Shown one piece after another: positions 23,590-58,844 of a stretch of DNA of 64,000 nucleotides. The notes beneath the pieces are model-generated. The model did not search any database. It saw only the letters and a list, made by a program, of their open reading frames with translations, and was not told the DNA's origin. A program made the position numbers and the translations under genes. Location of the stretch: contig JAPDPT010000005.1 of NCBI GenBank assembly GCA_034506315.1, positions 36,653 through 100,652 on the forward strand, given 5' to 3'. Position 1 is the first letter of the stretch. The number at the start of each line of letters is the position of its first letter. Origin of the DNA: Candidatus Zhuqueibacterota bacterium. Lineage in GTDB: Bacteria > Zhuqueibacterota > Zhuqueibacteria > Oleimicrobiales > Geothermoviventaceae.

Positions 23590-23602
23590 GCGGTTCCCTC
23601 AC

Positions 23603-25117: not shown

Positions 25118-25189
25118 CTCCCTGAGCGTTTGTCCTGACCCTTACTTCAGGGTGAATCTACCGCTCTTTGCTTTGGAAGACAACCCCAA

Positions 25190-25234
25190 GCTCATACAAA
25201 AGCCCCTACCGCCCGGGCCTGGGAGCGGTAGGGG
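25190..25234 (-). terminator. Putative intrinsic terminator downstream of the PorV-like gene
   Basis: Perfect 10-bp GC-rich inverted repeat CCCCTACCGC / GCGGTAGGGG (25203-25212 and 25225-25234) with a 12-nt loop. On the minus-strand transcript it is followed by GCUUUUGUAU. Confidence 0.5.
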
Positions 25235-25375
25235 CACCTAAGGGAGGGCCTCCGCGAACGCCTCCATCGGTGTTGGGACACTGCGCTTACCGAGTCCTCC
25301 CTCCTCCCTTTGCCCGCTTGGCTCCCCCGACCACCGAAATCTCCTGATGCCCGGATGCGAACCTCAGGCTATCCT

Positions 25376-26449: not shown

Positions 26450-26480
26450 TCCAAGCTCCCTTCCGGCATGATCGTTGGCC

Positions 26481-35304: not shown

Positions 35305-35393
35305 GGCTTCCACCTCCTCAAGATTGGCTCTCTTCCGTTCCCTCTTCTCCTCGGCCTCCAAAAGACGCAGCTCTCACCTCCCTTCCAGAGCGT

Positions 35394-36830: not shown

Positions 36831-36850
36831 AGGGCAACAAATATGCCGCC
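36831..36850 (-). promoter_or_regulatory. Sigma-54 (-24/-12) promoter-like element for the transporter gene
   Basis: Minus-strand sequence cGGCAT-ATTTG-TTGCc matches the TGGCAC-N5-TTGCW consensus: GG at 36847/36846, GC at 36835/36834, with the exact 10-nt spacing between GG and GC. It lies about 50 nt upstream of the GTG start. Confidence 0.5.
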
Positions 36851-36911: not shown

Positions 36912-36950
36912 ATTATCACGGTGATAATGACCCATTATCAGGCCGATAAT
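36912..36950. promoter_or_regulatory. Tandem 17-bp palindromes ATTATC-N5-GATAAT (candidate enhancer / UAS for the sigma-54 response regulator)
   Basis: ATTATCACGGTGATAAT (36912-36928; an 8-bp perfect inverted repeat around one central nucleotide) and ATTATCAGGCCGATAAT (36934-36950). Centres are 22 bp apart. They are AT-rich islands in a 64% GC genome, 65-105 bp upstream of the -24 element. Confidence 0.55.
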
Positions 36951-39213: not shown

Positions 39214-39236
39214 CGCCATCCCCTTGCCTTTCAGCC

Positions 39237-42209
39237 CTACTTGAGCACAAGCCACTTCCTGACCTCCACGGAGCCTCCCAGTGCAGCCTTCAGCAGATAC
39301 ACCCCCGTCGGTAGCCGATCCGCGCCCTCTAGGACCTGGCCAAGAGCCAAACGGAGGCGACCGGCCTTGGCCCTGAGTGGGGCGGACTCCATCACTTTCC
39401 TGCCTCGGAGATCAAACACGGCAATCGCCACTTCCCCCTGATGTGGCACGGCAAGCTGCAGATAGCAATCGTCTGCCCTGCAAGCCGAAGGCCTCCAGGG
39501 GTTGGGATAGAGACTCTCAATGGCAAACCGTCGCGGGATTTGCTGCGGGGAGGATTCGTTCTCCGCACCAGAAGGGCCACGGTAGATCTTCAGGCCGTAC
39601 CACACGGTGCGGTCTTTGGCCTGGTCCAGCTCGATCCGGAACCGACCGCCCACCACGGGCGCCCGCCACGAGCGCGCCAGCTCGGACTCGCCCTTGCGCG
39701 AGAGCGGGAAAATCCGCACGGAGTCCGCCGGAGTGGCAAGCTCCAGGACCACGCGCCGGGGCTCTACAAACGTGGGAGGCCTCCCCCATTGGTCATGGAC
39801 CGTACGCACGCCATCCCAGATCATGCCGTCATTCTGCACCCGGGAGGCCAAGGCTACAAGTACGCGATTGGTCGAATCGAAGGGCAAGCTGTCCACACAA
39901 ACAGCCGTCAGGGTCGTAAACCCGTCTGCGGACACCACCCTCCACGGACCGGTCTCCAAGCCTGCAAAGCGATCCAGCATCCCCGTGAAGGCCAAGAAGC
40001 GCGGACTAGCCACCCGCAGAAGGCCCAAGGGGTCCCACAGGATCTCTCCCGTATCCGAAAGGTACGGAGGACCGGACACGGCCGGAAGATGGCTCGCATC
40101 CAGGGGGGAGGGGCTCTGGAAGTCCACATTGCGCAGGCTATGGAGTAGGGCCAAACGCGGGTCCACAGGGGAGGGACCTTCCCATCCTCGGTAGCCCCGG
40201 CTTGGCTCCAGCAGCACATCCTCCCTATAGCTGTAGGCCAACGGAATCACCTGCCGCGCGGGCGCGACAAACCCCGCCCGGAGAGCGAGGGCGCAGGTGG
40301 GCATGTGAGCCATAATCGCTGTATTTCGGTGGTCGCTGAAAAAGCCGCGGACCAGATCGGTCTCCCAGTCGTCGCTGGTGCTCGCGTACTCGAAGAACAT
40401 GAAGCCGTCCGCGTCGTGGAACGCCGAGTAGGCCGTGATGAAGACCACGCCCTCCGTCTGATAGCGATTGGGGAAGGGATGGTCGTATTCACTGACTGTG
40501 TAAGGCTTGCCGGCCCAGGCTCTCCCGGCAAACAGCCGGCCGATTGTGGCGCCATTCGTCTCGAGCACCATCGCCGTGTTGTTGATGAACCAATCCACGG
40601 GTGACCAGGGCTCTCCTGGAAACTGAGGGTGGTCCCAGTACGCATGGTTGTCCACGTAATCCGCCTGCGACTGCACGTAGAGGTCCACCAACCCGAAGTT
40701 CCAGTTCGTGCGCACGATCGGCACCTTGACGCCGACCTCCGTTCGGAGGTAATTCTCCATGTCCGAGAAGAAACTCTCCTGGAGGCGGATGTAGAATTCC
40801 GTCTGGTCGGCTACCCGCGCGTCGCTGTAGGAGGGGCAGGCAGAGAAGGGGATGCGCCGCACCGTGCCTGCTTCGAGGCGCTCATCCTCAGCAAGACCAT
40901 AGCGAAGGCCTTCGTAGAGGTGCAGATCGTCAAACCAGTACGTACCTCGGGAGGCCCCCAGGAAAAAGCTCACCCGGAGATTGGTGTACTCCTGATCGGG
41001 CCTCCAGCTCATCGAAAAGGTCTGCCAATTGGGTTCGAGACGGAAACGACCGTAGGCGTACGTCGTCCAGGGGTCCGCGTTTTTCATGATGACCACGGTG
41101 ATGTCGCGGGGCGCGTCGGCTCGAGCCAGGAACTGCAGGACGTAGACGGAGTCCCTGTGCACGGCCAGACCGGCCTGCTGCCATTGCACGTGCCAGTCCA
41201 CGCCGTCTGTGGCCGTTACCACGACCCGTGCCGAGAGCCTTCCTTCCGCGGGGTCGGATGTGTCCACTGCCTGGTTGGCGGCTGCTGGGGAATGCACTTC
41301 GAGTCTCCAATTGCGAAGCGCCGGATCGCTATCGATCGTTCCGCCCTTCAGGAGATCGCGAGCAGCTCGCAGCTCGGCACCCCCCCACGCAAGACGCAGG
41401 TTCTCGGTGCTCCCGTACTTGTCCCTTAGAAACTGGCACCAAAGGCTGTCCAGAAGCCGGGCGTGGTAGTAGGTCAAGTTACCCCCCTCTCGAATGGGGG
41501 CCAGCAGGTCCTGACGCCACATGTAGTAGAGCGAGTTCTCGTTGGTGATCTCCACCATGGCCATCACCGGGTCGTCCTTCAGCGGGAGACGGGTGTAAGG
41601 GTTCACGTGGGTCAGGAGCTGGCGCGCGTATTCCTTCTGAAGCTCGATCAGACGGCGATCGAAGAGGCTAACCCCCTTGGCGAAATCGCGCAACGAATCA
41701 GCGTAGGGAACGCCGTCCTCCCTCCGGAAGGTACGGCTCACGTGAAGATTGACGTTGACGCGAATGCCATTGCGCTTCAGGTGAGCGATCAGATACTCCA
41801 GCCTGTCCAGCGTGACCGGGTTCAGGTGTCGTGTGTCAGAGCCCTGCTGAAACAGACTGCCCGGGCTCCACGGATTGTCCATGTGGTGCAGGCGGACCAG
41901 ATTGAAACCCATCTTTCGCAGCCGGGCCGCAATCCAGGGGGCCTTCGACTTGACCGGGAAGCAGCCATCGGCCACCAGATTCGTGCCGAAGAAGCGGAGC
42001 CGCTTGCCGCCTGCGGCGAAGTGGCCCTCCCCGTTGATGGTGACGAATTCGCCTGGACGGACAGCCTCGCTAAACGAGGGCCAACACTCCTGGAACGAAC
42101 TGTCCTCGGGCGGAAGGTAGAACGAGAATCCCCCGGTGAACTCCTGAGGAAAGGCCAGCCCCACCGCAACGAACAGCCCCGTTACCGCGATGGTAACCGC
42201 TCTGGTCAT
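39237..42209 (-). CDS. Large clan GH-A (GH5-like) glycoside hydrolase with T9SS C-terminal sorting domain
   Basis: The (beta/alpha)8 N-terminal region NLVRLHHMDNPW ... VMAMVEITNENSLYY has an NE acid/base-like strand-4 motif as in GH5. About 990 aa with beta-sandwich C-terminal modules. The C-terminus ...GVYLLKAALGGSVEVRKWLVLK is a T9SS CTD. ATG at 42207-42209 (MTRAVTIAVTGLFVAVGLA). Confidence 0.6.
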   Translation of the reverse strand: MTRAVTIAVTGLFVAVGLAFPQEFTGGFSFYLPPEDSSFQECWPSFSEAVRPGEFVTINGEGHFAAGGKRLRFFGTNLVADGCFPVKSKAPWIAARLRKMGFNLVRLHHMDNPWSPGSLFQQGSDTRHLNPVTLDRLEYLIAHLKRNGIRVNVNLHVSRTFRREDGVPYADSLRDFAKGVSLFDRRLIELQKEYARQLLTHVNPYTRLPLKDDPVMAMVEITNENSLYYMWRQDLLAPIREGGNLTYYHARLLDSLWCQFLRDKYGSTENLRLAWGGAELRAARDLLKGGTIDSDPALRNWRLEVHSPAAANQAVDTSDPAEGRLSARVVVTATDGVDWHVQWQQAGLAVHRDSVYVLQFLARADAPRDITVVIMKNADPWTTYAYGRFRLEPNWQTFSMSWRPDQEYTNLRVSFFLGASRGTYWFDDLHLYEGLRYGLAEDERLEAGTVRRIPFSACPSYSDARVADQTEFYIRLQESFFSDMENYLRTEVGVKVPIVRTNWNFGLVDLYVQSQADYVDNHAYWDHPQFPGEPWSPVDWFINNTAMVLETNGATIGRLFAGRAWAGKPYTVSEYDHPFPNRYQTEGVVFITAYSAFHDADGFMFFEYASTSDDWETDLVRGFFSDHRNTAIMAHMPTCALALRAGFVAPARQVIPLAYSYREDVLLEPSRGYRGWEGPSPVDPRLALLHSLRNVDFQSPSPLDASHLPAVSGPPYLSDTGEILWDPLGLLRVASPRFLAFTGMLDRFAGLETGPWRVVSADGFTTLTAVCVDSLPFDSTNRVLVALASRVQNDGMIWDGVRTVHDQWGRPPTFVEPRRVVLELATPADSVRIFPLSRKGESELARSWRAPVVGGRFRIELDQAKDRTVWYGLKIYRGPSGAENESSPQQIPRRFAIESLYPNPWRPSACRADDCYLQLAVPHQGEVAIAVFDLRGRKVMESAPLRAKAGRLRLALGQVLEGADRLPTGVYLLKAALGGSVEVRKWLVLK

Positions 42210-42219
42210 AGCTCCTGCC

Positions 42220-45200
42220 CTATCTGACAAGCACGAGCTTCACACTCCGCACGTACTCCTCCGAGCCGCGCGCCGCCCTGATCCTGCACACGTAGACTCC
42301 CGAGGGGAGCCCGCGCGGGGACCACCGGGCCAGGTGCCACCCTGCTGCCTGGGGACCGTCGAAAAGTCGCTCCACCTCGCGTCCCCGCGAGTCGAACACC
42401 TGGACGGTAACCCGGGCTGGCCACGGGAGCCGATACCGCAGCGCCGTCGCTTCATTAAAGGGGTTCGGACAACCGGGTAGCAGAGTGAAATGGCCCGGGG
42501 CAACGCTGGCCTCCGGAGGAGATTCTGTGCCGCTTGTTCCAGCGAACGGGTCTTTGATTTCCAGGAGAAGCTCCCAGATGGCCCGGGGTCGCTGATACTG
42601 GGGAGCGCGGTACCTCCGGGGATCGCTGAAATGCCATGCTTCTGGGGTGTTGAAAAAGTAAGCGGTCTCCTCATTGACCCAGGTCTGGTAGTACACGCCG
42701 TAGGCGGTCTGCAGAGCCCGCTGACACAGGAGCTCGTCGCCCAGTTCCTTGCCCCAGTGGTACATCATGGCCGCGACGAAGTAGCTGCTGCCCGTCCACA
42801 CCTCATCTGCCTGGCCATTGCCCACGGCGGTGCCATCGGGCCTGCGGCCGTTCACGGCGCCCATGTCCCCCACCCCGTCACCCGTGAAGTCGCGGAGCGG
42901 AGCCACGCACAGCTCGAAAACCTTGTGGAGATGGGAGGCCATGCGCTCCGGAGGCAAGATCGGGGGCAAACCGTTCGTCTCGCAGTACCGGCTGCCGTTG
43001 AGCCCATCGGCCATGATTACGTCCGAGGTCTGATCCAGACGATAGTAGCCCCCTCCTTCCACCCAGAGAATCGCGTTCGCGGCTACTCGGGCGAGGGAAA
43101 GTCGGCGGCGCACATCGTTCAGAAGCACGCCGTCTCCTTTTTCCTCGGCCAGCTGCTCCAGTGCCTCCAGCGCTCCGATCCACAATCCGCTGGCCAAGAG
43201 ATTGTCTCCGTGAAATCCCCAGGCATCGTAGGTCGTGTTGCCAACATCGGGCAGGCCGTTGCCATTGGTGTCCTTGGTTTTCATGTACGCGAAGGTTTTC
43301 TTGCACGCCGGCCAGACGAAGTCGAGGAACGCGCGATCGCGTGTCGTACGGTAGTAGGCGTAGACCTGCTGGATGAACTTGCTGGGCATATCCTGCCAGT
43401 CGCCGCCGTAGCCGCTGAACCGGAAGAACGGGTCCTGGCTTGGCATTCCGGCGTCGTGAGGAGCTTTCCCGTCCGGATCGTTGGCGATGTAGTCCGCGAA
43501 CCAGCGCAGCACATCCCTTTCAATCTCCGGCCAAAGCACTAAGTAATGGCGGCACTCGTAGTGCCGGACGTCGAAGGTTTCGCAGAAGGGGTAGGCCTGG
43601 CACTCCATGGAGAAGTACTTGTGGTCGGAGGGCGGAAGCGTGCCGTAGGAGGACTCCTCCGGCTTCGTGAGGCAACCGTTTTCCCAGAACACGCCGCCGA
43701 AGGTATCGTAGTAGAGTTCGTTCAGGGCAGCCTGCTTGAGCCAGTCGGGGTAACACGGTTCGGACAGGATCCTGTCCTGCCAGGCGTCCACCATCGCCTC
43801 CCAGTTGGTGTAGTTTCTCAGAGCTTCGGAGGCGATGTCGAAGGAGTTGTCGGCCTGGGTGTCAAAGTACTCTGTATAGCGGCGGTACCACTGGGTGCCC
43901 GCTCCGAATTCCACGATCGGGAAATCCCATGCCAGAGCAAAGGGCACACTCCATACCTCTCCCGGAGCCAGGCGTTTCCGAACGGCAATCGCCGCTGCTT
44001 CGGCGTCCGGATGGAGGCTGCGATTGCTGAGGAGCCCGTCGTCCCCGAAGTCGGTGTAGAAATCCGCGCCGTCGCCTCGTCCGTTCCAGGAGGTGCAGTA
44101 GCTCACCTCCTCCTCGGGGCTGAGGCGGCGGGTGGCAATGCACCACTCCGTCCCCTCCGTGGCGCGGCGGTTGGACGGACTGGTCGCGTCGAGGATCACT
44201 CCGAGGATATCGCCCTCCGTCCGCAGCACAGATCGCTTTCCGTAGCGTGGCCAATCCCCGTAGTCTGCATTGGGAAACGTAAGGGCAAAGGCTACCCGAA
44301 CCGTCTCGGTCGTCGCGTTGCGCACCACCGCTTCGAACACAGCCACCGGGAAGCTGCTCTCCCGGTAATTGTGAGGAATCACGGGCGTGAAGTGCCGCAG
44401 CGCCACCTCCACAGGCAGACCGTGGTACAGGAACCAGGCTTTGGGGTAGAGGGCAGCGTATATCCCTTCGCCGGGAAGTAGGCGTCGCCAGGCAGGCAGG
44501 ACATCCTCCGTGGCCAGGGTCGCCACCTGCGGCGCCTGGTGCCCCTGTTGGATCCACAAGTGGAATGCCCCGGCCGAGAGGAATTTCTCTTCGTGCAGCC
44601 CGGTCCGGAATTCCCACGGACCGAAGGTGCCGCACAGGTTGAACATGAAGTTGCCAGCCCCGATCCCACCCAGGGGGACTCCCCGTTTCGCATGGCCCGT
44701 AGCCCCGACCGGGTAATCTCCGATGGGCCGCGTCCAGGCAACCTCCGGGATCCTGGCCAGCTGCTCGGAAGGACGGCTGGCGATCACGGTTACCGGCTCG
44801 CTCCACGGACTGGCGTTGCCGAACACGTCCAGAGCGCGCACGCGGTAGCGGTAGGTTCGACCAACGACCACGGCGCTGTCCGCTGCGCGCACAATCGCAC
44901 TAACGCCTTTGATGATCTCTGGACCAAGCGCCTCCCACGCGCCTTCTTCCCCCACAGCTCGCTGGAGCTGGTAGCCGTCGAGGTCGGGCTCTCGATTGCG
45001 TTTCCAAGAAAGCCAAATCCTGCCCTGCCAGAAGGAGCCACGCAGCCCTTCTGGGACCGAGGGAGGCTGGTCGTCGGGCACGGCAGGAACGATGGCGATG
45101 GCTGCGAACTTGGCATAGTCCACCTTGACCTCGGGGACGGTGATGTCGATGCGGCCGTCGCGGACCCGCACAAAGACGGAGGTGTCTAACGCGGCATCGT

Positions 45201-45645
45201 GTCCAACCTGGGAGAAGATGTCGAAGTCATCCAGGAAGAGCAGCCCGTTGACGGCGACATCGAAGACCCGACGACCCGGTGCTGTCCAGTAGAGCTCGCA
45301 GAACTTGAACAGGATCCGGTACACCCCATTGTCCAGCCCCTCGTACCGGTAATGGAGATCCGGCCCGTAGCGTTCGGTACGATAGAGCTCGTCGTCGAGG
45401 GTACCGGAGATTTCGTCCGCCGTAGTCGCCGTGCCGACGCCTGCGCTCAGATAGCCCCAGCTTCCGGGGCGAAAGGCCCGATCGGCCTCCCACAGTTGAC
45501 CTGCTCGGTCCCGGTAAGCCACGGCCGTCCCGCAGCGGTGTCGGATCTCGACCGCCCACCCCGTGCTCATGGTCCACGCGACTACGAAGACGGCAACCCA
45601 CCGGGCAGCTGTTGACCAACGGACTCTACCCGACACCCCGCGCAT
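42220..45645 (-). CDS. GH116-family beta-glucosidase (GBA2/glucosylceramidase-like) with N-terminal malectin-like (CBM57-like) and FN3 domains and a T9SS CTD
   Basis: RGVPLGGIGAGNFMFNLCGTFGPWEF is the characteristic GH116 N-domain motif. The malectin-like stretch is YRILFKFCELYWTAPGRRVFDVAVNGLLFLDDFDIFSQVG. An FN3-like segment (...GRIWLSWKRNREPDLDGYQLQRA...) follows. The C-terminus ...SGVYVCRIRAARGSEEYVRSVKLVLVR is a T9SS CTD. The ATG at 45643-45645 has an AGGAG RBS 9 nt upstream. Confidence 0.7.
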   Translation of the reverse strand: MRGVSGRVRWSTAARWVAVFVVAWTMSTGWAVEIRHRCGTAVAYRDRAGQLWEADRAFRPGSWGYLSAGVGTATTADEISGTLDDELYRTERYGPDLHYRYEGLDNGVYRILFKFCELYWTAPGRRVFDVAVNGLLFLDDFDIFSQVGHDAALDTSVFVRVRDGRIDITVPEVKVDYAKFAAIAIVPAVPDDQPPSVPEGLRGSFWQGRIWLSWKRNREPDLDGYQLQRAVGEEGAWEALGPEIIKGVSAIVRAADSAVVVGRTYRYRVRALDVFGNASPWSEPVTVIASRPSEQLARIPEVAWTRPIGDYPVGATGHAKRGVPLGGIGAGNFMFNLCGTFGPWEFRTGLHEEKFLSAGAFHLWIQQGHQAPQVATLATEDVLPAWRRLLPGEGIYAALYPKAWFLYHGLPVEVALRHFTPVIPHNYRESSFPVAVFEAVVRNATTETVRVAFALTFPNADYGDWPRYGKRSVLRTEGDILGVILDATSPSNRRATEGTEWCIATRRLSPEEEVSYCTSWNGRGDGADFYTDFGDDGLLSNRSLHPDAEAAAIAVRKRLAPGEVWSVPFALAWDFPIVEFGAGTQWYRRYTEYFDTQADNSFDIASEALRNYTNWEAMVDAWQDRILSEPCYPDWLKQAALNELYYDTFGGVFWENGCLTKPEESSYGTLPPSDHKYFSMECQAYPFCETFDVRHYECRHYLVLWPEIERDVLRWFADYIANDPDGKAPHDAGMPSQDPFFRFSGYGGDWQDMPSKFIQQVYAYYRTTRDRAFLDFVWPACKKTFAYMKTKDTNGNGLPDVGNTTYDAWGFHGDNLLASGLWIGALEALEQLAEEKGDGVLLNDVRRRLSLARVAANAILWVEGGGYYRLDQTSDVIMADGLNGSRYCETNGLPPILPPERMASHLHKVFELCVAPLRDFTGDGVGDMGAVNGRRPDGTAVGNGQADEVWTGSSYFVAAMMYHWGKELGDELLCQRALQTAYGVYYQTWVNEETAYFFNTPEAWHFSDPRRYRAPQYQRPRAIWELLLEIKDPFAGTSGTESPPEASVAPGHFTLLPGCPNPFNEATALRYRLPWPARVTVQVFDSRGREVERLFDGPQAAGWHLARWSPRGLPSGVYVCRIRAARGSEEYVRSVKLVLVR

Positions 45646-45672: not shown

Positions 45673-47697
45673 TTAATGGACAACGGTGAGCTTTTGCACA
45701 AGCTTGCGGCCACCGCTCTCCAGCACACAGACGTACACGCCACTGGGGACGCGCTGGAACTCCGCATTCCGACCGTCCCAGGTTACGTTCCGCAGCCCTG
45801 CTCTGACCTCCCCCGAGTGTACGGTGGCCACCAGTCCCCCCATCGAGTCGAAGATCTGCACACGCAGTGGCATCTCCTCATTGGAGAGAACCGGTATGGC
45901 CAGGCGCTCTCCCACCGGATTGGGGTGAGGCCGTCCGATCCAGAGCCCGCTCCTCAGCTCCTGGAACATGCCCATCTGCTTCACGCTGGCCCCAGCGATC
46001 CGGAAATCAACCAAGTTCAGGTTGAAACCGCCGGTGGGGAAGAGGAGCTTCAGCACGTGCCGGCCGGAAGGCAACGTCACCGTGGGGCCGTCAATGTACT
46101 GCCAATTTTTCCAGCCGCCCGTGGAGGGAATGGCTATGGGGCCAGCCAGAGGCGAATCGTCCAGGAAGAGCTGGACGCTGCCCGTCGCCTGAGGGGAGGC
46201 CACGCGTAATCGGACCGTGTACGTTCCTTCCACGTCCACCTGGACGGTGAACTTGAGCCATTCGCCTGCCTCGATCCAGCCGACGCTGTAGCCGTTTCCC
46301 TCTGTGTCTCCACTGGCCTCGATATCGACCCCGTCGTTGCGAAAGACGGAGCCTCGGTTCCATTGCTCGCCGCTTGTGAGGCCTTTGGTCTTCCAGTAAT
46401 CTGTGTCGTGATAGGCCACGCCCTCGTTGCCCATGTCGTACTCAACCGCCAGCAGCCGGCCCGGAAGCCGGTGCTCCGAGTAGGGAACCGGTTCGGTTGT
46501 GAACCCGGGTCGGAGGAGGGCGTCCACCACATCTGGGTGGTACACGCAGTTCTCGAGCTTCAGCTGCTCCGCCATCCCGAACAAGGCGCGACGGGCCAGC
46601 TCGGCATCGGGCCGGGCGGCTCTCCCATTCCAGTAATCGAGCACCCGCTGGTACTCGGCGGTGATGGGGGCCGAGAACGGGCTGGTGAGGGTCTGGAACT
46701 TCTTATGGGTCCACCAGCACCAGCCGATTTTGTTCTGTTCCATGAGCCGGATGCAGGTGCCGAACCAGGGGTTGGAGTTCTCTCCGGACTCGCCAAGCCA
46801 GAGGGGAGTGTGGTAACGCCTTCGGATGTCAAGCAGGTACTGGATGGTCGGCAGGGTCGGCTCGTTCCAGTACTTGTGGAAGCTGTAGCAGAGATTGACG
46901 TCGAAGGGGGGCGTGAGATTGCTGAAATCTGTGGCGTACCAGTTCCCTTCGATGAAGACCATGTGGTTGGGGTCCACTTCGCGGATCGCCTGCGTGATCC
47001 GCATGTACAGAAGACGAAGCTCGGTGGTGCTGTGGCCCGAAGGAAGCACAGGCTCATTGAGGAGGTCATAGCCTCCGATCCACTCCTCCTGCGCGTACCT
47101 CTCGGCGATACGGCGCCAGATGTCCACCACCCGATCCTGATTCGAGGGGTCGGTCCAGAGGCGGGCCTCGATCCCGTCCGAATCGCTATGGTTCTCTTTG
47201 TTCTGCCCACCGGGGGCGCAATGCATATCCAAGATCAGGTAGAGGTGATACTTCCTGCACCACTCCACCACCCGGTCGAGGAGCTGGAATCCCTCCTCTA
47301 AGTACACACCGGGCTGGTCGGGCGGTGTGAGAAGCGCGTAATGAAAGGGCAGCCTGATGGAGTTGAACCCCCACTGGGCAATCCGCGCCACATCCTCCTC
47401 CGCCACGTAGTGGGCGCGGTATTGCTGGAAGAACTCATCGGTCAACTGGGGACCCAGCAGGTCGGCGATGAGATTGCGAATGGACGTCGGGGAGCCGAAT
47501 CCGGGCACTCTCAGCATGTAGCCCTCGGGAACCAACCAGCCGCCAAGTCCCAGGCCCCGTAGGATGACCTCCTCCCCGGTACGGGTGTCGATGATGCGCT
47601 CGCCTTGGGCCTTCAGAAAGGCGAGAGAAGGCACCGGGAGGAGACCGCACAGCAAGACCCCCGTCAGCGCACTCCAAAGTCGCGCATTCGGCTTCAC
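45673..47697 (-). CDS. GH5 family beta-glucanase with C-terminal CBM6/35-like module and T9SS CTD
   Basis: FNSIRLPFHY...LILDMHCAPGGQN...GYDLLNEPV (NEP acid/base motif) identify GH5. The C-terminal beta-sandwich GEWLKFTVQVDVEGTYTVRLRVASP...GGWKNWQY resembles CBM6. The C-terminus ...SGVYVCVLESGGRKLVQKLTVVH is a T9SS CTD. GTG start at 47695-47697 with a GGAGGTGGG RBS, giving signal peptide MKPNARLWSALTGVLLCGLLPVPSLA. Confidence 0.8.
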   Translation of the reverse strand: MKPNARLWSALTGVLLCGLLPVPSLAFLKAQGERIIDTRTGEEVILRGLGLGGWLVPEGYMLRVPGFGSPTSIRNLIADLLGPQLTDEFFQQYRAHYVAEEDVARIAQWGFNSIRLPFHYALLTPPDQPGVYLEEGFQLLDRVVEWCRKYHLYLILDMHCAPGGQNKENHSDSDGIEARLWTDPSNQDRVVDIWRRIAERYAQEEWIGGYDLLNEPVLPSGHSTTELRLLYMRITQAIREVDPNHMVFIEGNWYATDFSNLTPPFDVNLCYSFHKYWNEPTLPTIQYLLDIRRRYHTPLWLGESGENSNPWFGTCIRLMEQNKIGWCWWTHKKFQTLTSPFSAPITAEYQRVLDYWNGRAARPDAELARRALFGMAEQLKLENCVYHPDVVDALLRPGFTTEPVPYSEHRLPGRLLAVEYDMGNEGVAYHDTDYWKTKGLTSGEQWNRGSVFRNDGVDIEASGDTEGNGYSVGWIEAGEWLKFTVQVDVEGTYTVRLRVASPQATGSVQLFLDDSPLAGPIAIPSTGGWKNWQYIDGPTVTLPSGRHVLKLLFPTGGFNLNLVDFRIAGASVKQMGMFQELRSGLWIGRPHPNPVGERLAIPVLSNEEMPLRVQIFDSMGGLVATVHSGEVRAGLRNVTWDGRNAEFQRVPSGVYVCVLESGGRKLVQKLTVVH

Positions 47698-47732
47698 GCT
47701 CCCACCTCCTCGCCTTGTTACCTTGGGTGATG

Positions 47733-47752
47733 TGAACAAAATCCAGGCCGGA
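47733..47752 (-). promoter_or_regulatory. Weaker sigma-54-like -24/-12 element for the GH5 gene
   Basis: Minus-strand cGGCCTG-GATTT-TGTTc: GG at 47749/47748 with correct spacing, but the -12 element is TTGT rather than TTGC. It sits about 35 nt upstream of the GTG start and 75-115 bp downstream of the tandem palindromes, the same geometry as at 36.8 kb. Confidence 0.3.
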
Positions 47753-47824
47753 CTGCGGACGGAAAACGGTGCCTTGAATTGCAACGACTTAACGGGCCGG
47801 CGCACACGGAGGCCGGCCCCGGCA

Positions 47825-47864
47825 ATTATCGCCATGATAATGGGACGTTATTGTTCTGATAACG
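47825..47864. promoter_or_regulatory. Second pair of ATTATC-N5-GATAAT-type palindromes (candidate UAS), upstream of the GH5 gene and adjacent to the sigma-54 regulator gene
   Basis: ATTATCGCCATGATAAT (47825-47841) is a perfect ATTATC-N5-GATAAT site. CGTTATTGTTCTGATAACG (47846-47864) is a degenerate GTTAT-N7-ATAAC site. Centres are 22 bp apart, identical to the pair at 36912-36950. Confidence 0.5.
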
Positions 47865-48053
47865 CCACGAGGGAGGAGTCTCGTCGCCCCTGAGCCCAAG
47901 GGGACAAAGGATGCGCGGTGTCACTTGGACAGCCGTGCGTGAAGGGGTTCTCTTGCAGCGCTCCGGGGAGACCCGTCCGCGATGAGGGGCAAGACGCAGC
48001 TTGCGCGGAACCTCCCCCCACTCCGGCCGGGAGCTGGTAGCCAGAGGGTCCCG

Positions 48054-49514
48054 TTACTTGAGCCCGAGATCGCGGCACATCCGATGGAAGTTCGGTGGTG
48101 CCAGACCGAGCATCCGGGCGGCTTCTGCATCGGAGGAGCAGATCTTTCGCACGTAGCGGAAGTACTCCTCGCGGAAGCGCCTCTCCATTTCGCGCCAGGG
48201 GAGAATCTTCCCGTCGCCCGCGCGCCGTAACCAGTCCTCGATCTCCACCTCTTTGCGAAGCCGGATCTGGAAACCAAGAGCCTCCTCTACGTCCTCCCGG
48301 TCCAGACGCGGCTTCCCGGTCAGGAGAAGCCGCTGTATCACGTTCTGCAACTGGCGCACGTTCCCAGGCCAGGGATAGCCCAGCAGGACTTCCATGGCTG
48401 CCGGGCTCAGCTCCGGCGGGAGGCGGCCCATCTCGTCGCTATACCGCTTGAAATAGTGATCTGCCAAGAGGGGGATGTCCTCCCTTCGTTCGGCAAGGGG
48501 GGGCACGTAGATCGTCAGGACATTGAGGCGGTAGTACAGGTCCTCCCGGAAACGCCCTTCGCTGACCTCGCGCTCCAGATCTCGATTGGTGGCCGCGATC
48601 ACCCGCACGTCAACTTTCACGCGCCGCGTTCGTCCGATCTTGTCGATCTCCCCCTCTTGGATCACACGCAGCAGCGTGGACTGGGTGCTGAGGGGCAGCT
48701 CCGTGATCTCGTCCAGAAAAACGGTGCCCCGATCGGCCAGCTCGAAAAGGCCAGGCTTGTTGGCTTCCGCCCCCGTAAAGGCGCCCTTCTCGTACCCGAA
48801 GAGCTCACTTTCGATGAGGTTCTCCGGCAAGCTCCCGCAGTTTATGGGGAGGAAGTTTTCGAAACGGCGGCGACTGAGGTAATGGATATGAGTCGCCACC
48901 AGCTCCTTACCGGTACCGGAGGCGCCTCGGATCAATACCGTACTGTCGGTTTCAGCACACTGGCGGATCTGCTCGCGCAGGCGCTGAATGGCCGGCGATT
49001 GTCCCACAATGACCCGTTGGGCCAGGATATCCTCGATGCTCTTCTCCAGGCGAGCCGCGGAACGCCGCTTCTCCAGTTCCAGGCGCCTCTTCTCATAGGC
49101 ATTGAAGATGCTCAGAATAAAGTCCGTGGGCTGGTAAATGAAGTCGTCGATGTCGGCGGGGTACTTGGTGCAGTACCAGGTGGCCCCGGCTTCCAGGAGG
49201 CGATTGGCGAATTCGTAGTCGGTCATGTTGATGGTCATCTTGGTCACCACGATGATCTGGAGCGCCGGGTCAATCTCTTTGATGCGGCGGATGAGCGGCT
49301 CTCCCATGAGGCCGCCCGCGATCTGGAAGTCCATGATCACCACGTCGTACGAGCTCGGCGACTTGGCCAATTGCTCCAATGCCAGCCGCCCGTTAGCGAA
49401 CACGTCCACGATCTTGATCCGGTCTGCGAAGGGTTCGAGCGTACGTCGGATGCGGCGCACGTCGAACTCCTCGTCCTCGATCAACATGACCCGGATCGTA
49501 TGGCCCTTGCCCAT
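48054..49514 (-). CDS. Sigma-54-dependent two-component response regulator (NtrC family: receiver - AAA+ - Fis-type HTH)
   Basis: The receiver domain is IRVMLIEDEEFD...VVIMDFQI. The AAA+ sigma-54 activator domain has Walker A GASGTGKE, the GAFTGA sigma-54 contact loop (YEKGAFTGA) and an ESELFGY motif. The C-terminal HTH is AARMLGLAPPNFHRMCRDLGL. ATG at 49512-49514. Confidence 0.9.
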   Translation of the reverse strand: MGKGHTIRVMLIEDEEFDVRRIRRTLEPFADRIKIVDVFANGRLALEQLAKSPSSYDVVIMDFQIAGGLMGEPLIRRIKEIDPALQIIVVTKMTINMTDYEFANRLLEAGATWYCTKYPADIDDFIYQPTDFILSIFNAYEKRRLELEKRRSAARLEKSIEDILAQRVIVGQSPAIQRLREQIRQCAETDSTVLIRGASGTGKELVATHIHYLSRRRFENFLPINCGSLPENLIESELFGYEKGAFTGAEANKPGLFELADRGTVFLDEITELPLSTQSTLLRVIQEGEIDKIGRTRRVKVDVRVIAATNRDLEREVSEGRFREDLYYRLNVLTIYVPPLAERREDIPLLADHYFKRYSDEMGRLPPELSPAAMEVLLGYPWPGNVRQLQNVIQRLLLTGKPRLDREDVEEALGFQIRLRKEVEIEDWLRRAGDGKILPWREMERRFREEYFRYVRKICSSDAEAARMLGLAPPNFHRMCRDLGLK

Positions 49515-49518
49515 GGGC

Positions 49519-51009
49519 TCAGCTCCTGCTCTCATTGGGGATGGTGATCACAAACTGGCAGCCGCGGGAGAGGTTCTCGGCGTCGATCCTCCACCCGCAG
49601 CGCTGCGTGGCAATCTCGTAGGCGATGTAGCAGCCATAGCCGCTCTGATGGGCTGTGGTCTTGGTCGACACGTTCTCCAGGAACAGCCGTTTCACCCCAT
49701 TTTCCTCCAGAAGAAGATCCGGACGGATCCCCACCCCGTTGTCCCCGATGTAAACCTTGGACTCGCCTTTTTCCGGATCGTATACGGTCCGAATGTGTAC
49801 GGTGACCTGCCCATCGCCGGCGTGGTCCAGGCTATTCTGGATCAGCGGCTCAAAAACCTCCCACACGACGAACTCATTGACGTGGACCACAGGCAGATTC
49901 GGGTCCAGGTCCAGCTGGAACTGGTAGTCGCCAAGCGGGGCCGAGACGCGGCGGAAGATGTTGTCCACCAGGAACTGCAAGAGCTCGTTGATGTCCGTTC
50001 GGAACATCGGCCCTCGGATGGCCTGAATTGGCGGGTCGTAGGTCTTCATGTCGTAGATCACGCGGGAGATGAAATTAGCGTACTTGGACACGCGGTACTT
50101 GACCTCCTGGATGTTCTCCACGGACAGGCGCCGGAGATCTTCTTTGATGAAGCCCATGATCTTCTCGGCTTTGTGGTGGGTGTGGTAGATCCGCTTGGCG
50201 AAGAGGGCTTCCTTTTGGTGGTGAATTCGTTCCCGCAGTTGGCGCTCGCGTTCCTCGAAAAGCTGGCGCTGGGCCTCATCCCTCTCCTTGACCGTGTAGG
50301 ACGAGATGTAGAACATGGCAAGCAGGCCAAAGAAAATGAGGCCGGTGAAGATGAGGCTGCTTTCGTTGTAGCTGGAGACGATGCCGCTGGTTACGATCCC
50401 GAAGTCCGGGGCGTACTTCATGTAAAGGGCACCCATCAGCTCGCCCTTCGGGACGAAGGGGACGAAAACGTGGAACGTCCGCGGCGGTTCGACGAGGCTC
50501 CGGATCTGCTCCTGGGAGATGATTTCATCGAAATGCTCACGGTAGAGCTGGAGGGCGCGCGCGTAGGTCGTGTCGTTATCCGCCGGGGGCTCCATTCCCC
50601 AGAAAAGGGTTGCGAACAGCTGCTGCCCGTTGTCCACCGGATGGGCGTTGGCGCCATCGCCCAGAAGCAGGCAGACCTGCTGCACATGGTGCTGGAGCAG
50701 CTGCTCGCTCAGAATGATATTGAAAGCCTGGATGATCTTCTTCGCTTCGTCGTCGCTGACGAAAGGACGGCTCTCAAGGCTCGTCTCCAGAAGCAACTCA
50801 AGGGAAGTTGCGGTGAGATTCGCCAGCTTCTCCGCGAAATCGCGTTGGTACCACTCCTGTGTGTTCACGAGAAACTTCTGCAGGGAGACCTTATGGATAA
50901 ACGACACTAACACCTGGAAGAAGACGAGCACCGAGAGGAGCACCATCAGGTGTTTCAGCTCGAAGTGATAGGGCCTCACCTTATCCATTAACTTCTGCAC
51001 GTACCTCAT
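49519..51009 (-). CDS. Sensor histidine kinase (membrane-anchored, HATPase_c)
   Basis: N-terminal TM segment MVLLSVLVFFQVLVSF. The C-terminal GHKL ATPase stretch is ...LIQNSLDHAGDG...IGDNGVGIRPD...GYGCYIAYEIATQRCGW. Its stop lies 5 nt before the regulator start, so the two are operonic. Confidence 0.75.
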   Translation of the reverse strand: MRYVQKLMDKVRPYHFELKHLMVLLSVLVFFQVLVSFIHKVSLQKFLVNTQEWYQRDFAEKLANLTATSLELLLETSLESRPFVSDDEAKKIIQAFNIILSEQLLQHHVQQVCLLLGDGANAHPVDNGQQLFATLFWGMEPPADNDTTYARALQLYREHFDEIISQEQIRSLVEPPRTFHVFVPFVPKGELMGALYMKYAPDFGIVTSGIVSSYNESSLIFTGLIFFGLLAMFYISSYTVKERDEAQRQLFEERERQLRERIHHQKEALFAKRIYHTHHKAEKIMGFIKEDLRRLSVENIQEVKYRVSKYANFISRVIYDMKTYDPPIQAIRGPMFRTDINELLQFLVDNIFRRVSAPLGDYQFQLDLDPNLPVVHVNEFVVWEVFEPLIQNSLDHAGDGQVTVHIRTVYDPEKGESKVYIGDNGVGIRPDLLLEENGVKRLFLENVSTKTTAHQSGYGCYIAYEIATQRCGWRIDAENLSRGCQFVITIPNESRS

Positions 51010-51021
51010 GGCGGACCCTTC

Positions 51022-52362
51022 CTACTTGAGTACAAACTGGTTGGAAAAAATGGCGGCCTGCGCCTTTTCCAAAGCCTCTGCCACCGACATTTCCCCCCGA
51101 ATGGCCAGGTTTGCGTAATAGGAGAGGATATCCGACACCTGCGTGTAGCGCTCAATGTAGGGGCGGTGCACGCCGTGCTCCATCAGCCTTCGGTACAGGG
51201 ATAGATCTGGGTGCGCCGCGAGGAACGAGGTGTCTGCGTAGATGGACTGCAAGACGGGGATGTACCCGGAGGTTTCGTAGAGGATCTTCTGGTTCTGCTC
51301 TTCAAGGAGGAAACGCACAAAAGTCAGGGCAGCCCTCCCGTTGCGGGAGAATCGCGAGATCATCAGGTTCCATCCGCCGAACACGAAGGCGGGCCGCCCC
51401 CCGGCAAAGTGCGGAAGCGGCGCCAGACCGAAGTTCGACAAGGGAGCGGTCCTTTCAATCTGTTCCCGGTAGTGGAGGAGAAACCCTGGCCAGCCGCGGA
51501 AGAAGATCGCGTTGTGATCCAAGGCGTACATGTAGCTCAGGATCTCGTCGAAGAAGACCACCTTGGGCGGCGTGGCGCGGTAGCGATGGACCAGGTCGGC
51601 GAGGAGCTGCAGGCTGCGCCGGGCCGCGGGCGTATTGACCCGAATCCTCCCCTCGGCATCCACGAGGGAATCCCCCAGGCTCATCACTCCCTCCACGAAA
51701 CTGCAGATGAGCCCCTCGTAGTTGTCCGCCGCGAAGAGGTAGTACGGGCTCGTCTTGGGGCTCCAGCGCTCGAACGCGGCTAAGAATTCTTCCCAGGAGA
51801 TCGAGCGCTGGACCTTCTCCTGGAGCGCCGGCCAGTCCGGAAGTTGTTGCAGGAGGTCCTTGCGGTAGTACATCAGGCCGATGTCCAGGTAGAGGGGCAC
51901 GGCCATCAGCCTTCCCTGGTAGTAGCAGGAGGTCAAAGCATAGGGCAGAAGGCGCGCGCGATCTGCGTGCGTGAAGTAGGCGTCGAGCGGCTCCCCCCAC
52001 TTGGCGAAGCGCGGTACCCAGATGACGTCCACCGAAAACACGTCGATGCGGTCGCTCTTGCTGCGAAGGGCCCGTGCCAGAAGCTCCTTGCGTTCGTTGG
52101 TGCTGAAGCGGGTGAAGGGCAAATGGACCGTAATGACCTGGTAACGATTGCGGTAGCGTTCGTTGAAGCGCCGCACAATCTCCTGGTGGGCAGGGGAAAT
52201 GTTGTCTGCGTAGTAGATTTTCACCACAGGCGGGCGCGCCGGTGAGGTCAGAATCGCCGGACCGACGATAATGGCCAAGATCGCCACCCCAATCACCGCA
52301 AACGTGACCCCCCAGAGCACGCGGCGCCCAAACTTCTCCTCCTGTTGCTCTTCCATGGGCAA
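51022..52362 (-). CDS. Extracellular solute-binding protein (family-1 sugar ABC-type SBP) with no cognate permease; likely a sensor-associated ligand-binding component
   Basis: N-terminal membrane anchor/signal VLWGVTFAVIGVAILAIIVGPAIL. An SBP_bac_1-like body follows (...VDVIWVPRFAKWGEPLDAYF...). TTG start at 52362 with a GGAGGTG RBS. Directly followed by the kinase and regulator genes. Confidence 0.7.
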   Translation of the reverse strand: MPMEEQQEEKFGRRVLWGVTFAVIGVAILAIIVGPAILTSPARPPVVKIYYADNISPAHQEIVRRFNERYRNRYQVITVHLPFTRFSTNERKELLARALRSKSDRIDVFSVDVIWVPRFAKWGEPLDAYFTHADRARLLPYALTSCYYQGRLMAVPLYLDIGLMYYRKDLLQQLPDWPALQEKVQRSISWEEFLAAFERWSPKTSPYYLFAADNYEGLICSFVEGVMSLGDSLVDAEGRIRVNTPAARRSLQLLADLVHRYRATPPKVVFFDEILSYMYALDHNAIFFRGWPGFLLHYREQIERTAPLSNFGLAPLPHFAGGRPAFVFGGWNLMISRFSRNGRAALTFVRFLLEEQNQKILYETSGYIPVLQSIYADTSFLAAHPDLSLYRRLMEHGVHRPYIERYTQVSDILSYYANLAIRGEMSVAEALEKAQAAIFSNQFVLK

Positions 52363-52366
52363 GAGC

Positions 52367-53131
52367 TCACCTCCTGCGGAAAATCTGAACGTGGTCGTAC
52401 AGAGCCTGGGCTGGGAGGTTGCTGTCGTCTCTGGGCCCCGCCCAGGCCACCGATTCCGAATACCAGAGGTTCATCATCACCTGCATCCGCAGATCGGGCA
52501 CGTGCGTCGTGTCCGCCACCTGATGGATCAGCTTTCCGTCGGCGTACCAGCGTACCACCCCCTCCTCCCATTCGATCGAATACTCGTGAAAGTCGGCCGC
52601 GGCATCGAACGGCAGAGCGATGACCTTGGGCCATTGGTGCCCGGCGTCCCCCGCATTGTTCGCAGCGCCCTCAGGCCCCGGATTGTAGTAGATATTCAGG
52701 TGGATCTTGCGTGTATCCTTGCCCAGGAACTCGATGTCGATTTCCTGCCAGGGATTGTACCGGTAGAGGAAAAACGAGCTAACGATCCCGCTCCCCCGCG
52801 CAGCCTTCATCCGCACAGAAAACCTACCGTACAGGTATGAGGAACGCGTCCGAAGCTCCCCGCCGGTGTAGTTCCGGTCCAGGTAGAACTCGGGTCGGAG
52901 CGTGAGGACGAGTTTACCGTCCTGCACTGTGACGTTCTCCGGCTTGAAACGGGCCGCGTTGTACGGGAAGGTGTGAGTGGCTTTCTCCCAGCGCGTTTCG
53001 TTGAGCGTGTCGAAGGGCTCGTCGAGGATGAGTTTCCAGGGCGATGGCTCAGGTGCAGTGGACGATTTCGAACATCCCCACGCAAACAAGACCCACGTGA
53101 TCCAAAGGACCGGCCCCACGCGCTTGCCCAT
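52367..53131 (-). CDS. GH16 beta-glucanase lipoprotein (paralogue of the CTD-bearing GH16 at 21790..23589)
   Basis: Lipobox ...VLFAWGCSKSS. GGELRTRSSYLYGRFSVRMKAARGSG and the catalytic WQEIDIEFLG (ExDxE) are present. 254 aa with no CTD. ATG at 53129-53131 with a GGGAGG RBS. Confidence 0.85.
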   Translation of the reverse strand: MGKRVGPVLWITWVLFAWGCSKSSTAPEPSPWKLILDEPFDTLNETRWEKATHTFPYNAARFKPENVTVQDGKLVLTLRPEFYLDRNYTGGELRTRSSYLYGRFSVRMKAARGSGIVSSFFLYRYNPWQEIDIEFLGKDTRKIHLNIYYNPGPEGAANNAGDAGHQWPKVIALPFDAAADFHEYSIEWEEGVVRWYADGKLIHQVADTTHVPDLRMQVMMNLWYSESVAWAGPRDDSNLPAQALYDHVQIFRRR

Positions 53132-53285
53132 CGTTTACCTCCCGCCGGATTTCCGTTCGAAAGATAGTCAAGGAGCCAGCGGAAGGCAAACGGAAAACCT
53201 CCCGTTCGGATCGGAGCCCTTCGGGACAGGTTGCGAGTCTACTCGGAGAGCCCGAGCATCGTCGGGGTCTTGTCCCCGGCACAGC

Positions 53286-54020
53286 TCAGATGAAACGTTC
53301 TCGCTTCTGCAGGTTTCGGAGGCCAAAGAGGATCGCGAGGAGCGAGGCGGCCGTAAGGTACAGGCGGTTCTGGGCCACAAGGCTCGCCCACACCACCTCG
53401 TTCAAGCCGGAGGGGATCTGGTACGGATTCAGGAACACATTCCACTTGCTCGCCGCCAGAGGCTCGGCGGCGAGGAAGCAGCCAATGCCCAGGGCAACCA
53501 TGACCACCGCGGTTCCACTGCCACTGCGGAGCACCGTTGAAAGCATGAAGGCCAGGCTCCCCCAGAAGACCACGGGGAACATCACCTGCACTGCCATCGG
53601 CAGCACGGCCACGGGCATCACCGTGAGCGAGGCCAGCGCCCCCAGGGCCAGGAGGGTAGCCAGCGCCAGGACAAACATCATCACCAGACGGACGAGCCAC
53701 ACCTTGTACCGGTAGTCCGGGATCCCGAAAAGGATCTCGATCATTCGCACGTCGACGTCGCTCTGCAAGCCAAACGTCGACGGATAGAAGACCACCAGCA
53801 GCCCAGGAAAGAGCAGGTAGTAATACACCAGCCCGGGGCTCGGGGCAGCATCGGAGAACACAAAGATCCCATTGAGCAAGAGGAAGAACGCGACCGCCGC
53901 CAGGAAAAACAGCGGGAACTTGTTCCCGAAGATGATCTTCAGGTTGTAGCGGGCCATCCGGCTCACCAGGTCCGCATGGCTTGCCCAGCGACGGACAGCC
54001 ATCCTTCTCACCGTACTCAT
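53286..54020 (-). CDS. ABC-2 family transporter permease (GldF/NosY-like six-TM subunit)
   Basis: 244 aa with six hydrophobic segments. The N-terminal ...FFLLLNGIFVF is typical of ABC-2 permeases. The ATG at 54018-54020 overlaps the upstream stop in an ATGA arrangement, indicating translational coupling. Confidence 0.75.
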   Translation of the reverse strand: MSTVRRMAVRRWASHADLVSRMARYNLKIIFGNKFPLFFLAAVAFFLLLNGIFVFSDAAPSPGLVYYYLLFPGLLVVFYPSTFGLQSDVDVRMIEILFGIPDYRYKVWLVRLVMMFVLALATLLALGALASLTVMPVAVLPMAVQVMFPVVFWGSLAFMLSTVLRSGSGTAVVMVALGIGCFLAAEPLAASKWNVFLNPYQIPSGLNEVVWASLVAQNRLYLTAASLLAILFGLRNLQKRERFI

Positions 54021-58753: not shown

Positions 58754-58844
58754 CGTCAACGAAGCTCGTTTTCGTCCGTCGCCGTACCTTCCGTCACCGC
58801 CTACCCCCTCGGAGGTAGCTGCTTTGCCGACCTCTGCGGGCAAC

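Follow-up and report, generated by a model that had tools for sequence, protein, structure and literature searches.

A stretch of 64,000 nucleotides from the genome of a Candidatus Zhuqueibacterota bacterium (contig JAPDPT010000005.1, positions 36,653 to 100,652 of the forward strand; hereafter the window) carries a cluster of beta-glucan utilization genes, located next to a gene for an NtrC-type activator (48054-49535). Two tandem pairs of palindromes, found within this cluster, are predicted to serve as the enhancer for the neighboring activator and, through it, to drive the cluster from sigma-54 type promoters, a reading to which we assign a probability of about 0.85. The evidence comes from the anatomy of the sites in the window, from their recurrence beside orthologues of the activator in genomes of several phylum-level labels, and from the conservation of -24/-12 promoter elements close to them.

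The pair upstream of a gene for a glycoside hydrolase of family 5 (GH5), designated here UAS2 (for upstream activating sequence), is located in the 356-bp intergenic region between the activator gene and the GH5 gene. An earlier note on this DNA had placed there a palindrome, ATTATCGCCATGATAAT (47825-47841), and a degenerate partner, CGTTATTGTTCTGATAACG (47846-47864), 22 bp apart and 128-167 bp before a GTG start, and all of these positions proved correct, with the in-frame GTG at 47697 following a GGAGG ribosome-binding site. When expressed in terms of the unit TTATC-N5-GATAA, the promoter-proximal palindrome of UAS2 (47826-47840, minus strand; TTATCATGGCGATAA) shows no mismatches and is centered at approximately -109 from the predicted transcription start, and the promoter-distal palindrome (47848-47862, minus strand; TTATCAGAACAATAA), in which one half-site is degenerate, shows one mismatch and is centered at approximately -131, the start site being assumed in all cases to lie 12 nt past the -12 element. 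The second pair, UAS1, is located in the 181-bp intergenic region between a GH3 gene and a gene for a 462-amino-acid protein, and it consists of two perfect palindromes, ATTATCACGGTGATAAT and ATTATCAGGCCGATAAT (pair, 36912-36950; units, 36913-36927 and 36935-36949; minus strand), also 22 bp from center to center, with the centers at approximately -98 and -120. This pair lies 130-168 bp before the GTG at 36782, again as had been claimed. Both pairs thus represent dyad-symmetric sites within the range of approximately 80-150 bp upstream of a promoter. The near-equal offsets to the two start codons had been taken as an argument for a common regulator, and while the numbers hold, the equality is partly a coincidence, as it results from two compensating differences, one in the distance from the pair to the -24 GG (76 nt for the GH5 operon versus 65 nt for the second one), and one in the predicted leaders (approximately 27 and 40 nt, respectively). 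The pairs cannot be due to chance: when up to one mismatch is allowed, TTATC-N5-GATAA has exactly four matches in the 64 kb, and these are the two pairs, compared to a mean of 0.35 in shuffled sequences, none of 100 shuffles reaching four, and when the window was block-shuffled 20 times with its composition preserved, no tandem pair arose.

Further evidence is provided by related loci. The activator belongs to a very large family of close relatives, with the 120 best database clusters being 60-90% identical (approximately 485 amino acids), many of them labeled KSB1, Calditrichaeota, or Caldithrix, while the assembly index contained no exact match to the protein of the window. A scan of one genome per species produced 61 loci encoding orthologues of the activator (referred to here by L numbers), a total of 825 kb, with 10 kb read to each side per locus. 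These originate from metagenome-assembled genomes (MAGs) labeled KSB1, Zhuqueibacterota, Calditrichia, Ignavibacteria/Melioribacteraceae, Neomarinimicrobiota, and various “Bacteroidota/Cytophagia,” the labels of many of these MAGs being unreliable, and two distant acidobacterial matches served as outgroups. With at most two mismatches per unit and at most three per pair, and with offsets of 12-45 bp scanned, 45 tandem pairs are present in these loci, compared to 0.15 per block shuffle, and their offsets are concentrated in a sharp peak, with 33 cases at 22 bp and 10 at 23 bp. The pairs recur across MAGs of KSB1, Calditrichota, Ignavibacteriota, and Marinimicrobia types. Many are found 12-290 bp past the stop codon of the activator orthologue, and others are found further downstream, including those that follow a GH3 gene, in the position of UAS1 (L005, L012, L014, L026). 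Phylogenetic footprinting, which had been proposed as the way to check the sites, has thus shown that the palindromes are not missing from orthologous regions, and their recurrence beside activator orthologues supports the idea of a regulator shared by both genes and linked to the adjacent sigma-54 activator gene.

The alignment of 27 of these sites also refines the motif. The originally described ATTATC-N5-GATAAT is indeed present in the window, but its outer A and T are only weakly conserved, and the better unit is TTATCA-N3-TGATAA, in which the A after TTATC and the T before GATAA, neither used in selecting the sites, are conserved, while the 7-nt linker between the units and the flanks are not. 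The DNA site bearing the TTATCA half-site, TTATCACGGTGATAA, is the predicted target of the activator. Almost always there are two units per site, both in the window and in the orthologous loci, and occasionally there are three degenerate ones (L011). In the closest locus, L001, the activator is 89% identical and the G+C content is, at 61%, like that of the window. When the two intergenic regions are aligned, most of the spacer is diverged, and the long conserved blocks are the half-sites, the -24/-12 block, and the ribosome-binding site with the GTG. The half-sites of both UAS2 palindromes are conserved in L001, those of the promoter-proximal one being identical, while the internal spacers differ, and the promoter-distal palindrome aligns with TTATCACTACGATAA of L001.

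A putative sigma-54 type promoter is found between each pair and the gene downstream. In front of the GH5 operon (47734-47751, minus strand; cGGCCTGGATTTTGTtc), GG at 47749-47748 and GT at 47737-47736 form a GG-N10-GT element (47749-47736, minus strand; GGCCTGGATTTTGT), T replacing C at -12, and in front of the second operon (36833-36848, minus strand; cGGCATATTTGTTGCc) the element is GG-N10-GC, the -24 GG and the -12 GC being separated by the typical 10 nt (GGCATATTTGTTGC). The GH5 candidate had been noticed before at its expected place and described as weaker, and of this description only the location stands: of 30 orthologous promoters, 18 end their -12 element in T, 8 in A, and 4 in C, which makes GG-N10-GT the usual form. 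These 30 loci, none of them from the window, yield the consensus TGGCATAATTnTTG(T/C/A), also written as TGGCATAATTnTTGT, which takes in conserved positions that were not selected for. In 37 of 47 pairs a match to GG[CT]-N7-TTG[CTA] is present 40-110 nt away on one side, compared to a background of 3.7% per equivalent window, most typically 60-79 nt past the promoter-side end of the pair. When a weight matrix was built from the other genomes only, the two promoters of the window ranked 6th (36851) and 12th (47753) of approximately 128,000 positions, and they were the top-scoring matches seen in coding-strand intergenic DNA. The element of the GH5 gene is part of a 17-nt block, CGGCCTGGATTTTGTTC, that is identical in L001 amid a diverged spacer, and given this conservation it appears unlikely that the TTGT is non-functional, a possibility that had been named as a potential refutation. 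While the existence and the conservation of these elements follow from the comparison, their function as promoters is what we infer from it.

The distance from the pair to the -24 element is bimodal, with classes of 60-67 and 72-79 nt and no cases at 68-71 nt, and the two sites of the window fall one into each class, their spacing differing by 11 nt, or approximately one helical turn. Such a distribution would fit a requirement for the enhancer and the promoter to share one face of the helix. Two further features of the spacers were considered. A GC-rich stem-loop with an 8-bp stem, GGGCCGGC...GCCGGCCC (47795-47822, minus strand), is located between UAS2 and its promoter, and L001 carries a different hairpin at the matching position. 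As a terminator or attenuator it was rejected, as shuffled sequences fold just as stably (z = -0.3), it has no T-run, and no terminator-like site was recognized; no Rfam family reached its gathering score anywhere in the 64-kb window. As to a site for IHF between enhancer and promoter, a match to WATCAANNNNTTR was seen by eye in L002 only and not in the window, and we make no claim for it.

The presumed partner of these sites, an enhancer-binding response regulator, is encoded, like all the genes in the glucan part of the window, on the minus strand (48054-49535), its true start likely being the ATG at 49514, and in most loci its orthologues align from residue 8 of the query or later. It combines a receiver, an AAA+ domain with GAFTGA, and a putative Fis-like helix-turn-helix. 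The receiver is recognized by Pfam (Response_reg, residues 16-124), and the stretches IEDEEFD, VVIMDF, IVVTK, and YCTKY, read as containing the acidic pocket, the phospho-acceptor Asp, the Thr, and the Lys, are nearly invariant in 41 homologues. The AAA+ part is recognized as Sigma54_activat (E = 7e-71), possesses the GAFTGA loop, and is followed by the lid domain AAA_lid_14; no other GAFTGA protein is encoded in the 64 kb. The long helical linker that joins the receiver to the AAA+ domain suggests negative control by the unphosphorylated receiver, in the style of NtrC1 and DctD. Among the best solved structures over the receiver and AAA+ domains are those of Aquifex NtrC1 and NtrC4 (E of approximately 1e-76) and of ZraR. 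All of the 25 NCBIfam equivalog matches listed, of 32 in all, score well below their cut-offs (for example, 319 versus 559 for NtrC and 324 versus 714 for AtoC), placing the protein outside the named groups (NtrC, AtoC, ZraR, NorR, NifA, GlrR, and others). An AlphaFold model of its last 91 residues has a pLDDT of 87-96 over the final 50, and the modeled C-terminus can be superposed, with 1.3-1.6 A over approximately 50 residues, on the domains with which NtrX, Fis, and NtrC4 (also in its DNA-bound form) bind DNA. All of the 120 top homologues carry the helix signature AP[PS]N[YF][HYL]R, as do the motif-bearing loci with a readable C-terminus (those of L054 and L057 are garbled), and in the window the recognition helix reads PPNFHRMCRDL.

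In most of the 61 loci the activator gene is directly preceded by a gene for a histidine kinase, and these two are part of a conserved trio that also includes a gene for a solute-binding protein. In the window, the kinase (49519-51009) possesses two hydrophobic segments, as judged by eye, around a presumably periplasmic domain of approximately 180 amino acids, along with HATPase_c, and the binding protein (51022-52362; SBP_bac_8/1), with its N-terminal hydrophobic anchor, presumably serves the kinase as a partner that senses sugar. A GH16 beta-glucanase gene (52367-53131), with similarity to BglS and ExoK below the NCBIfam cut-offs, heads these sensor genes, with 4 nt between it and the binding-protein gene, and the region upstream of it (53132-53285) contains no palindrome pair. 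One may speculate that this GH16 is a constitutive sentinel enzyme that releases the inducing oligosaccharide. In three Ignavibacteria-type loci (L044, position 7086; L046, 7016; L053, 7078) and in L028 (2807), an extra pair is found upstream of the binding-protein gene, and its sigma-54 promoter points in the opposite direction, to a divergent MFS transporter gene.

Taken together, gene order and domain content point to a scenario in which the membrane-anchored binding protein would bind a product of beta-glucan breakdown, possibly a sugar released by the GH16 enzyme, and would signal to the kinase, which in turn would phosphorylate the receiver domain of the activator. By anatomy and by the precedent of the NtrC family, two dimers of the activator would then occupy the two TTATCA-N3-TGATAA sites, which, being two helical turns apart, lie on one face of the DNA, and would nucleate the AAA+ ring. 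With the intervening 60-80 bp or so looped out, the ring would reach the sigma-54 RNA polymerase at the -24/-12 element and open the promoter with ATP. Two transcription units would be turned on in this way, one for the GH5, GH116, GH5-like, and GH3 enzymes, and one for the membrane protein, the CBM9 protein, the TonB-dependent receptor, and the genes further on.

A number of observations weigh against this scenario. Pfam HTH_8 is not detected in the C-terminus of the activator even at E <= 0.1, and in a Foldseek search the modeled C-terminus produced matches with a probability of 0.92-1.00 whose E values (>= 0.26) are not significant, which is usual for so small a domain. No RpoN-box match is found in the 64-kb window; the presence of rpoN in the genome is likely, given the intact GAFTGA activator. 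The helical phasing of pairs and promoters (Rayleigh p of approximately 4e-4 at a period of 11.5 bp) is calculated from sites that, being in part orthologous, are not independent of one another. Three loci that possess the trio, L049, L055, and L080, lack an adjacent pair. L080 is from a cultured species, Caldithrix abyssi (contig JBPMKA010000002.1, 1685-5992), in which the genes after the trio encode FBPase and a tRNA synthetase, no tandem site or hydrolase genes being present in the vicinity, and any targets must thus lie elsewhere in the genome of this species. One more case is a subgroup of eight loci (L030, L033, L036, L038, L039, L040, L042, L045) that keep the trio but have a different recognition helix, SNFFRMCKELG, along with a first helix reading SDSNAAEKLG. 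These show neither the tandem pair nor a convincing local sigma-54 promoter, and no convincing tandem palindrome of another kind emerged when up to 10 kb to either side was searched. The joint occurrence of a different helix and no pair is suggestive of a link between the two, yet it does not amount to covariation, as no alternative site is present. It is conserved adjacency that connects the activator to the sites. Finally, the palindromes also occur in unrelated contexts, so that the sequence alone is not diagnostic: of the 18 matches to the exact 24-position pattern in metagenome contigs, none is from the glucan system, with the possible exception of L077, most being iteron-like arrays and three belonging to a different family of activators.

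The latter three (L066, L072, L074) bear on one alternative, according to which the sites are a sigma-54 enhancer bound by a different enhancer-binding protein, encoded elsewhere, with the adjacent activator acting on other targets. In L066 (1630-6364), for example, a gene for an enhancer-binding protein of 586 amino acids, with a SpoVT_C/GAF-like N-terminus, an AAA+ domain, and an ordinary HTH_8, is divergent from an operon for an amidohydrolase and a xanthine/uracil permease, with the same tandem palindrome in between and with a canonical sigma-54 promoter, TTGGCATACATATTGCTT, approximately 104 bp past it. Such an arrangement suggests that the sequence may be used by DNA-binding domains of different kinds, and the orthologous activator loci without an adjacent pair also agree with this alternative. 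However, in many genomes, of several phylum-level labels, the pair is close to the stop codon of the activator orthologue (12-290 bp), no other DNA-binding gene was noticed in the related loci, and the adjacent protein is the sole GAFTGA protein in the window; we therefore regard it as improbable. Slightly less probable again is that the palindromes are operators of a classical repressor or activator, acting on a sigma-70 type promoter, with the likeness to -24/-12 elements being fortuitous. The GH5 gene does have GT in place of the textbook GC at -12, and a weak sigma-70-like match is present within the pair (TTATCA-17-TATCAT, 9 of 12), but such a match is due to the resemblance of the half-sites to -35 and -10 hexamers. 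Within the spacer, on the other hand, nothing is better conserved between close relatives than the -24/-12 block, which recurs at a fixed distance in 37 of 47 sites (compared to a background of approximately 4%), while centers at approximately -100 to -130 are atypical for operators, and no repressor gene was noticed in the loci.

Two other explanations appear far more remote than these. As the second operon includes a TonB-dependent receptor gene, the sites could be thought of as Fur-type iron boxes that govern the receptor cluster, especially as the hexamers of the Fur consensus, GATAATGATAATCATTATC, are the same as the GATAAT and ATTATC of the window sites. The anatomy largely refutes this already: the hexamers in the window are everted, with a 3-nt core spacer and an unconserved 7-nt linker, as opposed to a contiguous 19-bp box. 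Moreover, the sites lie approximately 100 bp upstream of the -24/-12 element and not over the promoter, and carbohydrate enzymes and sugar transporters are encoded in every locus, leaving this explanation hardly credible. Equally hard to credit is that the pairs represent a dispersed repeat or a replication iteron that plays no part in transcription. Exact TTATCAnnnTGATAA units are indeed found as 4-6 direct repeats with a period of 21-22 bp in metagenomic contigs of low G+C content (L075, approximately 1520-1680; L079, 4247-4370; L069, 2958-2994; L070, L071, and L078), and these arrays of 15-mers resemble the replication iterons of mobile elements and bear no relation to the glucan system. 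The sites discussed here, in contrast, usually have two units only, their spacers are not conserved, they keep a fixed position relative to the promoter and the start of the gene, their gene context is conserved, and no genes of mobile elements were seen next to them. Of all these explanations, an enhancer for the adjacent NtrC-type activator thus remains the one that we favor.

The genes that would be controlled in this way form, as judged by their content, a coherent beta-glucan utilization regulon. The first gene of operon 1, preceded by a ribosome-binding site and GTG start that are kept in L001 (47695-47711, minus strand; GGAGGTGGGAGC; the frame is supported by clean translation), encodes the GH5 enzyme of the cellulase family (45673-47697), with CBM6/35 and a C-terminal sorting domain for type IX secretion. 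It is followed by genes for GH116 with a malectin domain (42220-45645), a GH5-like protein with CBM4_9 (39237-42230), and a GH3 beta-glucosidase (36964-39255), all assigned by Pfam, and the short gaps or overlaps between them suggest co-transcription. GH5 orthologues come after the activator gene in many loci, and the order of the genes in operon 1 is the same in L001, L014, and L026. Operon 2 starts with the gene for the 462-amino-acid protein (35394-36782), strongly hydrophobic as judged by eye and without a family match, whose position is held in L005 by a sodium:solute symporter; symporter or MFS genes come after the pair and promoter in seven more loci (L013, L016, L020, L021, L028, L044, L046). 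Pfam identifies further products of this operon as a CBM9 protein that carries a type IX sorting domain (32806-35361) and a TonB-dependent receptor (29984-32668) whose N-terminal domain is CarboxypepD_reg, and a CBM9 gene, usually followed by a TonB-dependent receptor gene, is also found downstream of pairs in L011, L013, L043, L044, L046, L047, L048, and L053. In other genomes, the genes found right after a pair and promoter encode GH5 with CBM6, orthologous to that of the window, GH9, GH30, GH16 (with or without malectin), and GH99-like enzymes, along with sodium:solute symporters, MFS sugar transporters, and the CBM9/TonB-dependent receptor pair.

Past the receptor gene of the window (21790-29948, minus strand) are found genes for a protein of 1155 amino acids, a PorV-like protein (25376-26497), a protein of 504 amino acids without a match, and a second GH16, with malectin (21790-23589). 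The first of these occupies the usual position of a SusD-like gene, and Pfam gives no match for it, to the SusD family or to any other. On the other side of the sensor genes, one open reading frame of 1621 amino acids (54017-58882, minus strand), overlapping the frame at 53286-54728, encodes both a complete AcrB-type RND transporter (residues 47-1072) and an ABC-transporter ATPase (residues 1345-1489). No in-frame stop separates the domains, and the frame is either an unusual fusion or a pair of neighboring genes that are in phase by chance.

Among known systems, one of the closest parallels is the enhancer of glnAp2 in enteric bacteria, in which two dyad sites for NtrC, TGCACCA-N3-TGGTGCA, are located on one face of the DNA, approximately 100-140 bp upstream of the -24/-12 element and spaced by approximately 32 bp. 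The system in the window shares with it, and with DctD, ZraR, and AtoC, a receiver, a GAFTGA AAA+ domain, and a putative Fis-like domain, as well as paired upstream sites and a kinase gene located before the activator gene. It differs in the site itself (TTATCA-N3-TGATAA), in the 22-23 bp spacing, in a -12 element that is mostly TTGT or TTGA, in a kinase that is membrane-bound and paired with a solute-binding protein, and in its output, which is polysaccharide degradation. The receiver and AAA+ domains match those of NtrC1 and NtrC4 of Aquifex aeolicus (PDB 1NY5, 4L4U; DNA-binding domains 3E7L, 4FTH), and NtrC4, including its DNA-bound form, is also among the best fold matches for the modeled DNA-binding domain (1.6 A over 51 residues), while the organism, the targets, and the recognition sequence are different, and the helix PPNFHRMCRDL is divergent enough for HTH_8 to miss it. 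Sigma-54-dependent induction of genes for the use of beta-glucan products, from an upstream activating sequence, is also a feature of the CelR/LevR-type activators of cellobiose and beta-glucoside phosphotransferase system (PTS) operons in Firmicutes (PMC10864463). Those, however, are controlled by PRD/PTS domains and target PTS transporters, unlike the window system, with its two-component receiver, secreted glycoside hydrolases, and TonB-dependent uptake. In terms of output, the likeness is with the polysaccharide utilization loci of Bacteroidota, members of the same superphylum, in which a TonB-dependent receptor and secreted glycoside hydrolases are also induced by the substrate, under SusR, hybrid two-component systems, or extracytoplasmic function (ECF) sigma/anti-sigma pairs. 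None of these three types of control is known to use sigma-54 or an enhancer-binding protein, and the window further differs from these loci in sensing via a separate binding protein and kinase and in having no SusD match by Pfam.

Overall, the design is the textbook scheme of an enhancer-binding protein and sigma-54. What appears undescribed is the recognition sequence, the 22-bp architecture, the preference for TTGT or TTGA at -12, the link with a binding protein and kinase, and the use of such a scheme for clusters with TonB-dependent uptake and type IX-secreted enzymes; a search of the full-text literature on how sigma-54 or NtrC might control polysaccharide loci in these phyla produced nothing relevant. 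The module as a whole (solute-binding protein, kinase, enhancer-binding regulator, two TTATCA-N3-TGATAA sites, helically phased sigma-54 promoter, and genes for glucanases or sugar transporters) recurs in MAGs labeled KSB1/Zhuqueibacterota, Calditrichota, Ignavibacteriota, and Marinimicrobia. Whether it is a general and previously unrecognized scheme for beta-glucan clusters in the non-Bacteroidota phyla of the Fibrobacterota-Chlorobiota-Bacteroidota superphylum (KSB1/Zhuqueibacterota, Calditrichota, Ignavibacteriota, Marinimicrobia) we consider to be an even question. If so, it would represent a fourth mode of control, beside SusR, the hybrid two-component systems, and the ECF sigma/anti-sigma pairs, with a lineage-specific promoter grammar at -12. 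The approximately 30 natural sigma-54 promoters in which the C at -12 is mostly replaced by T or A would be useful for studies of sigma-54 promoter recognition in these lineages, and the system is a candidate inducible promoter system for both high-GC and low-GC members of the superphylum. Almost no members of the phyla in question are in culture, and annotations of their glycan-degrading clusters usually contain no regulatory logic. With a cis-element defined by site, spacing, and promoter consensus and a sensor-regulator trio, the beta-glucan regulon would become predictable from sequence alone in hundreds of MAGs, and it is probably sigma-54 with an NtrC-type activator, and not regulators of the Bacteroides type, that controls the clusters for TonB-dependent uptake and type IX-secreted enzymes in these organisms.

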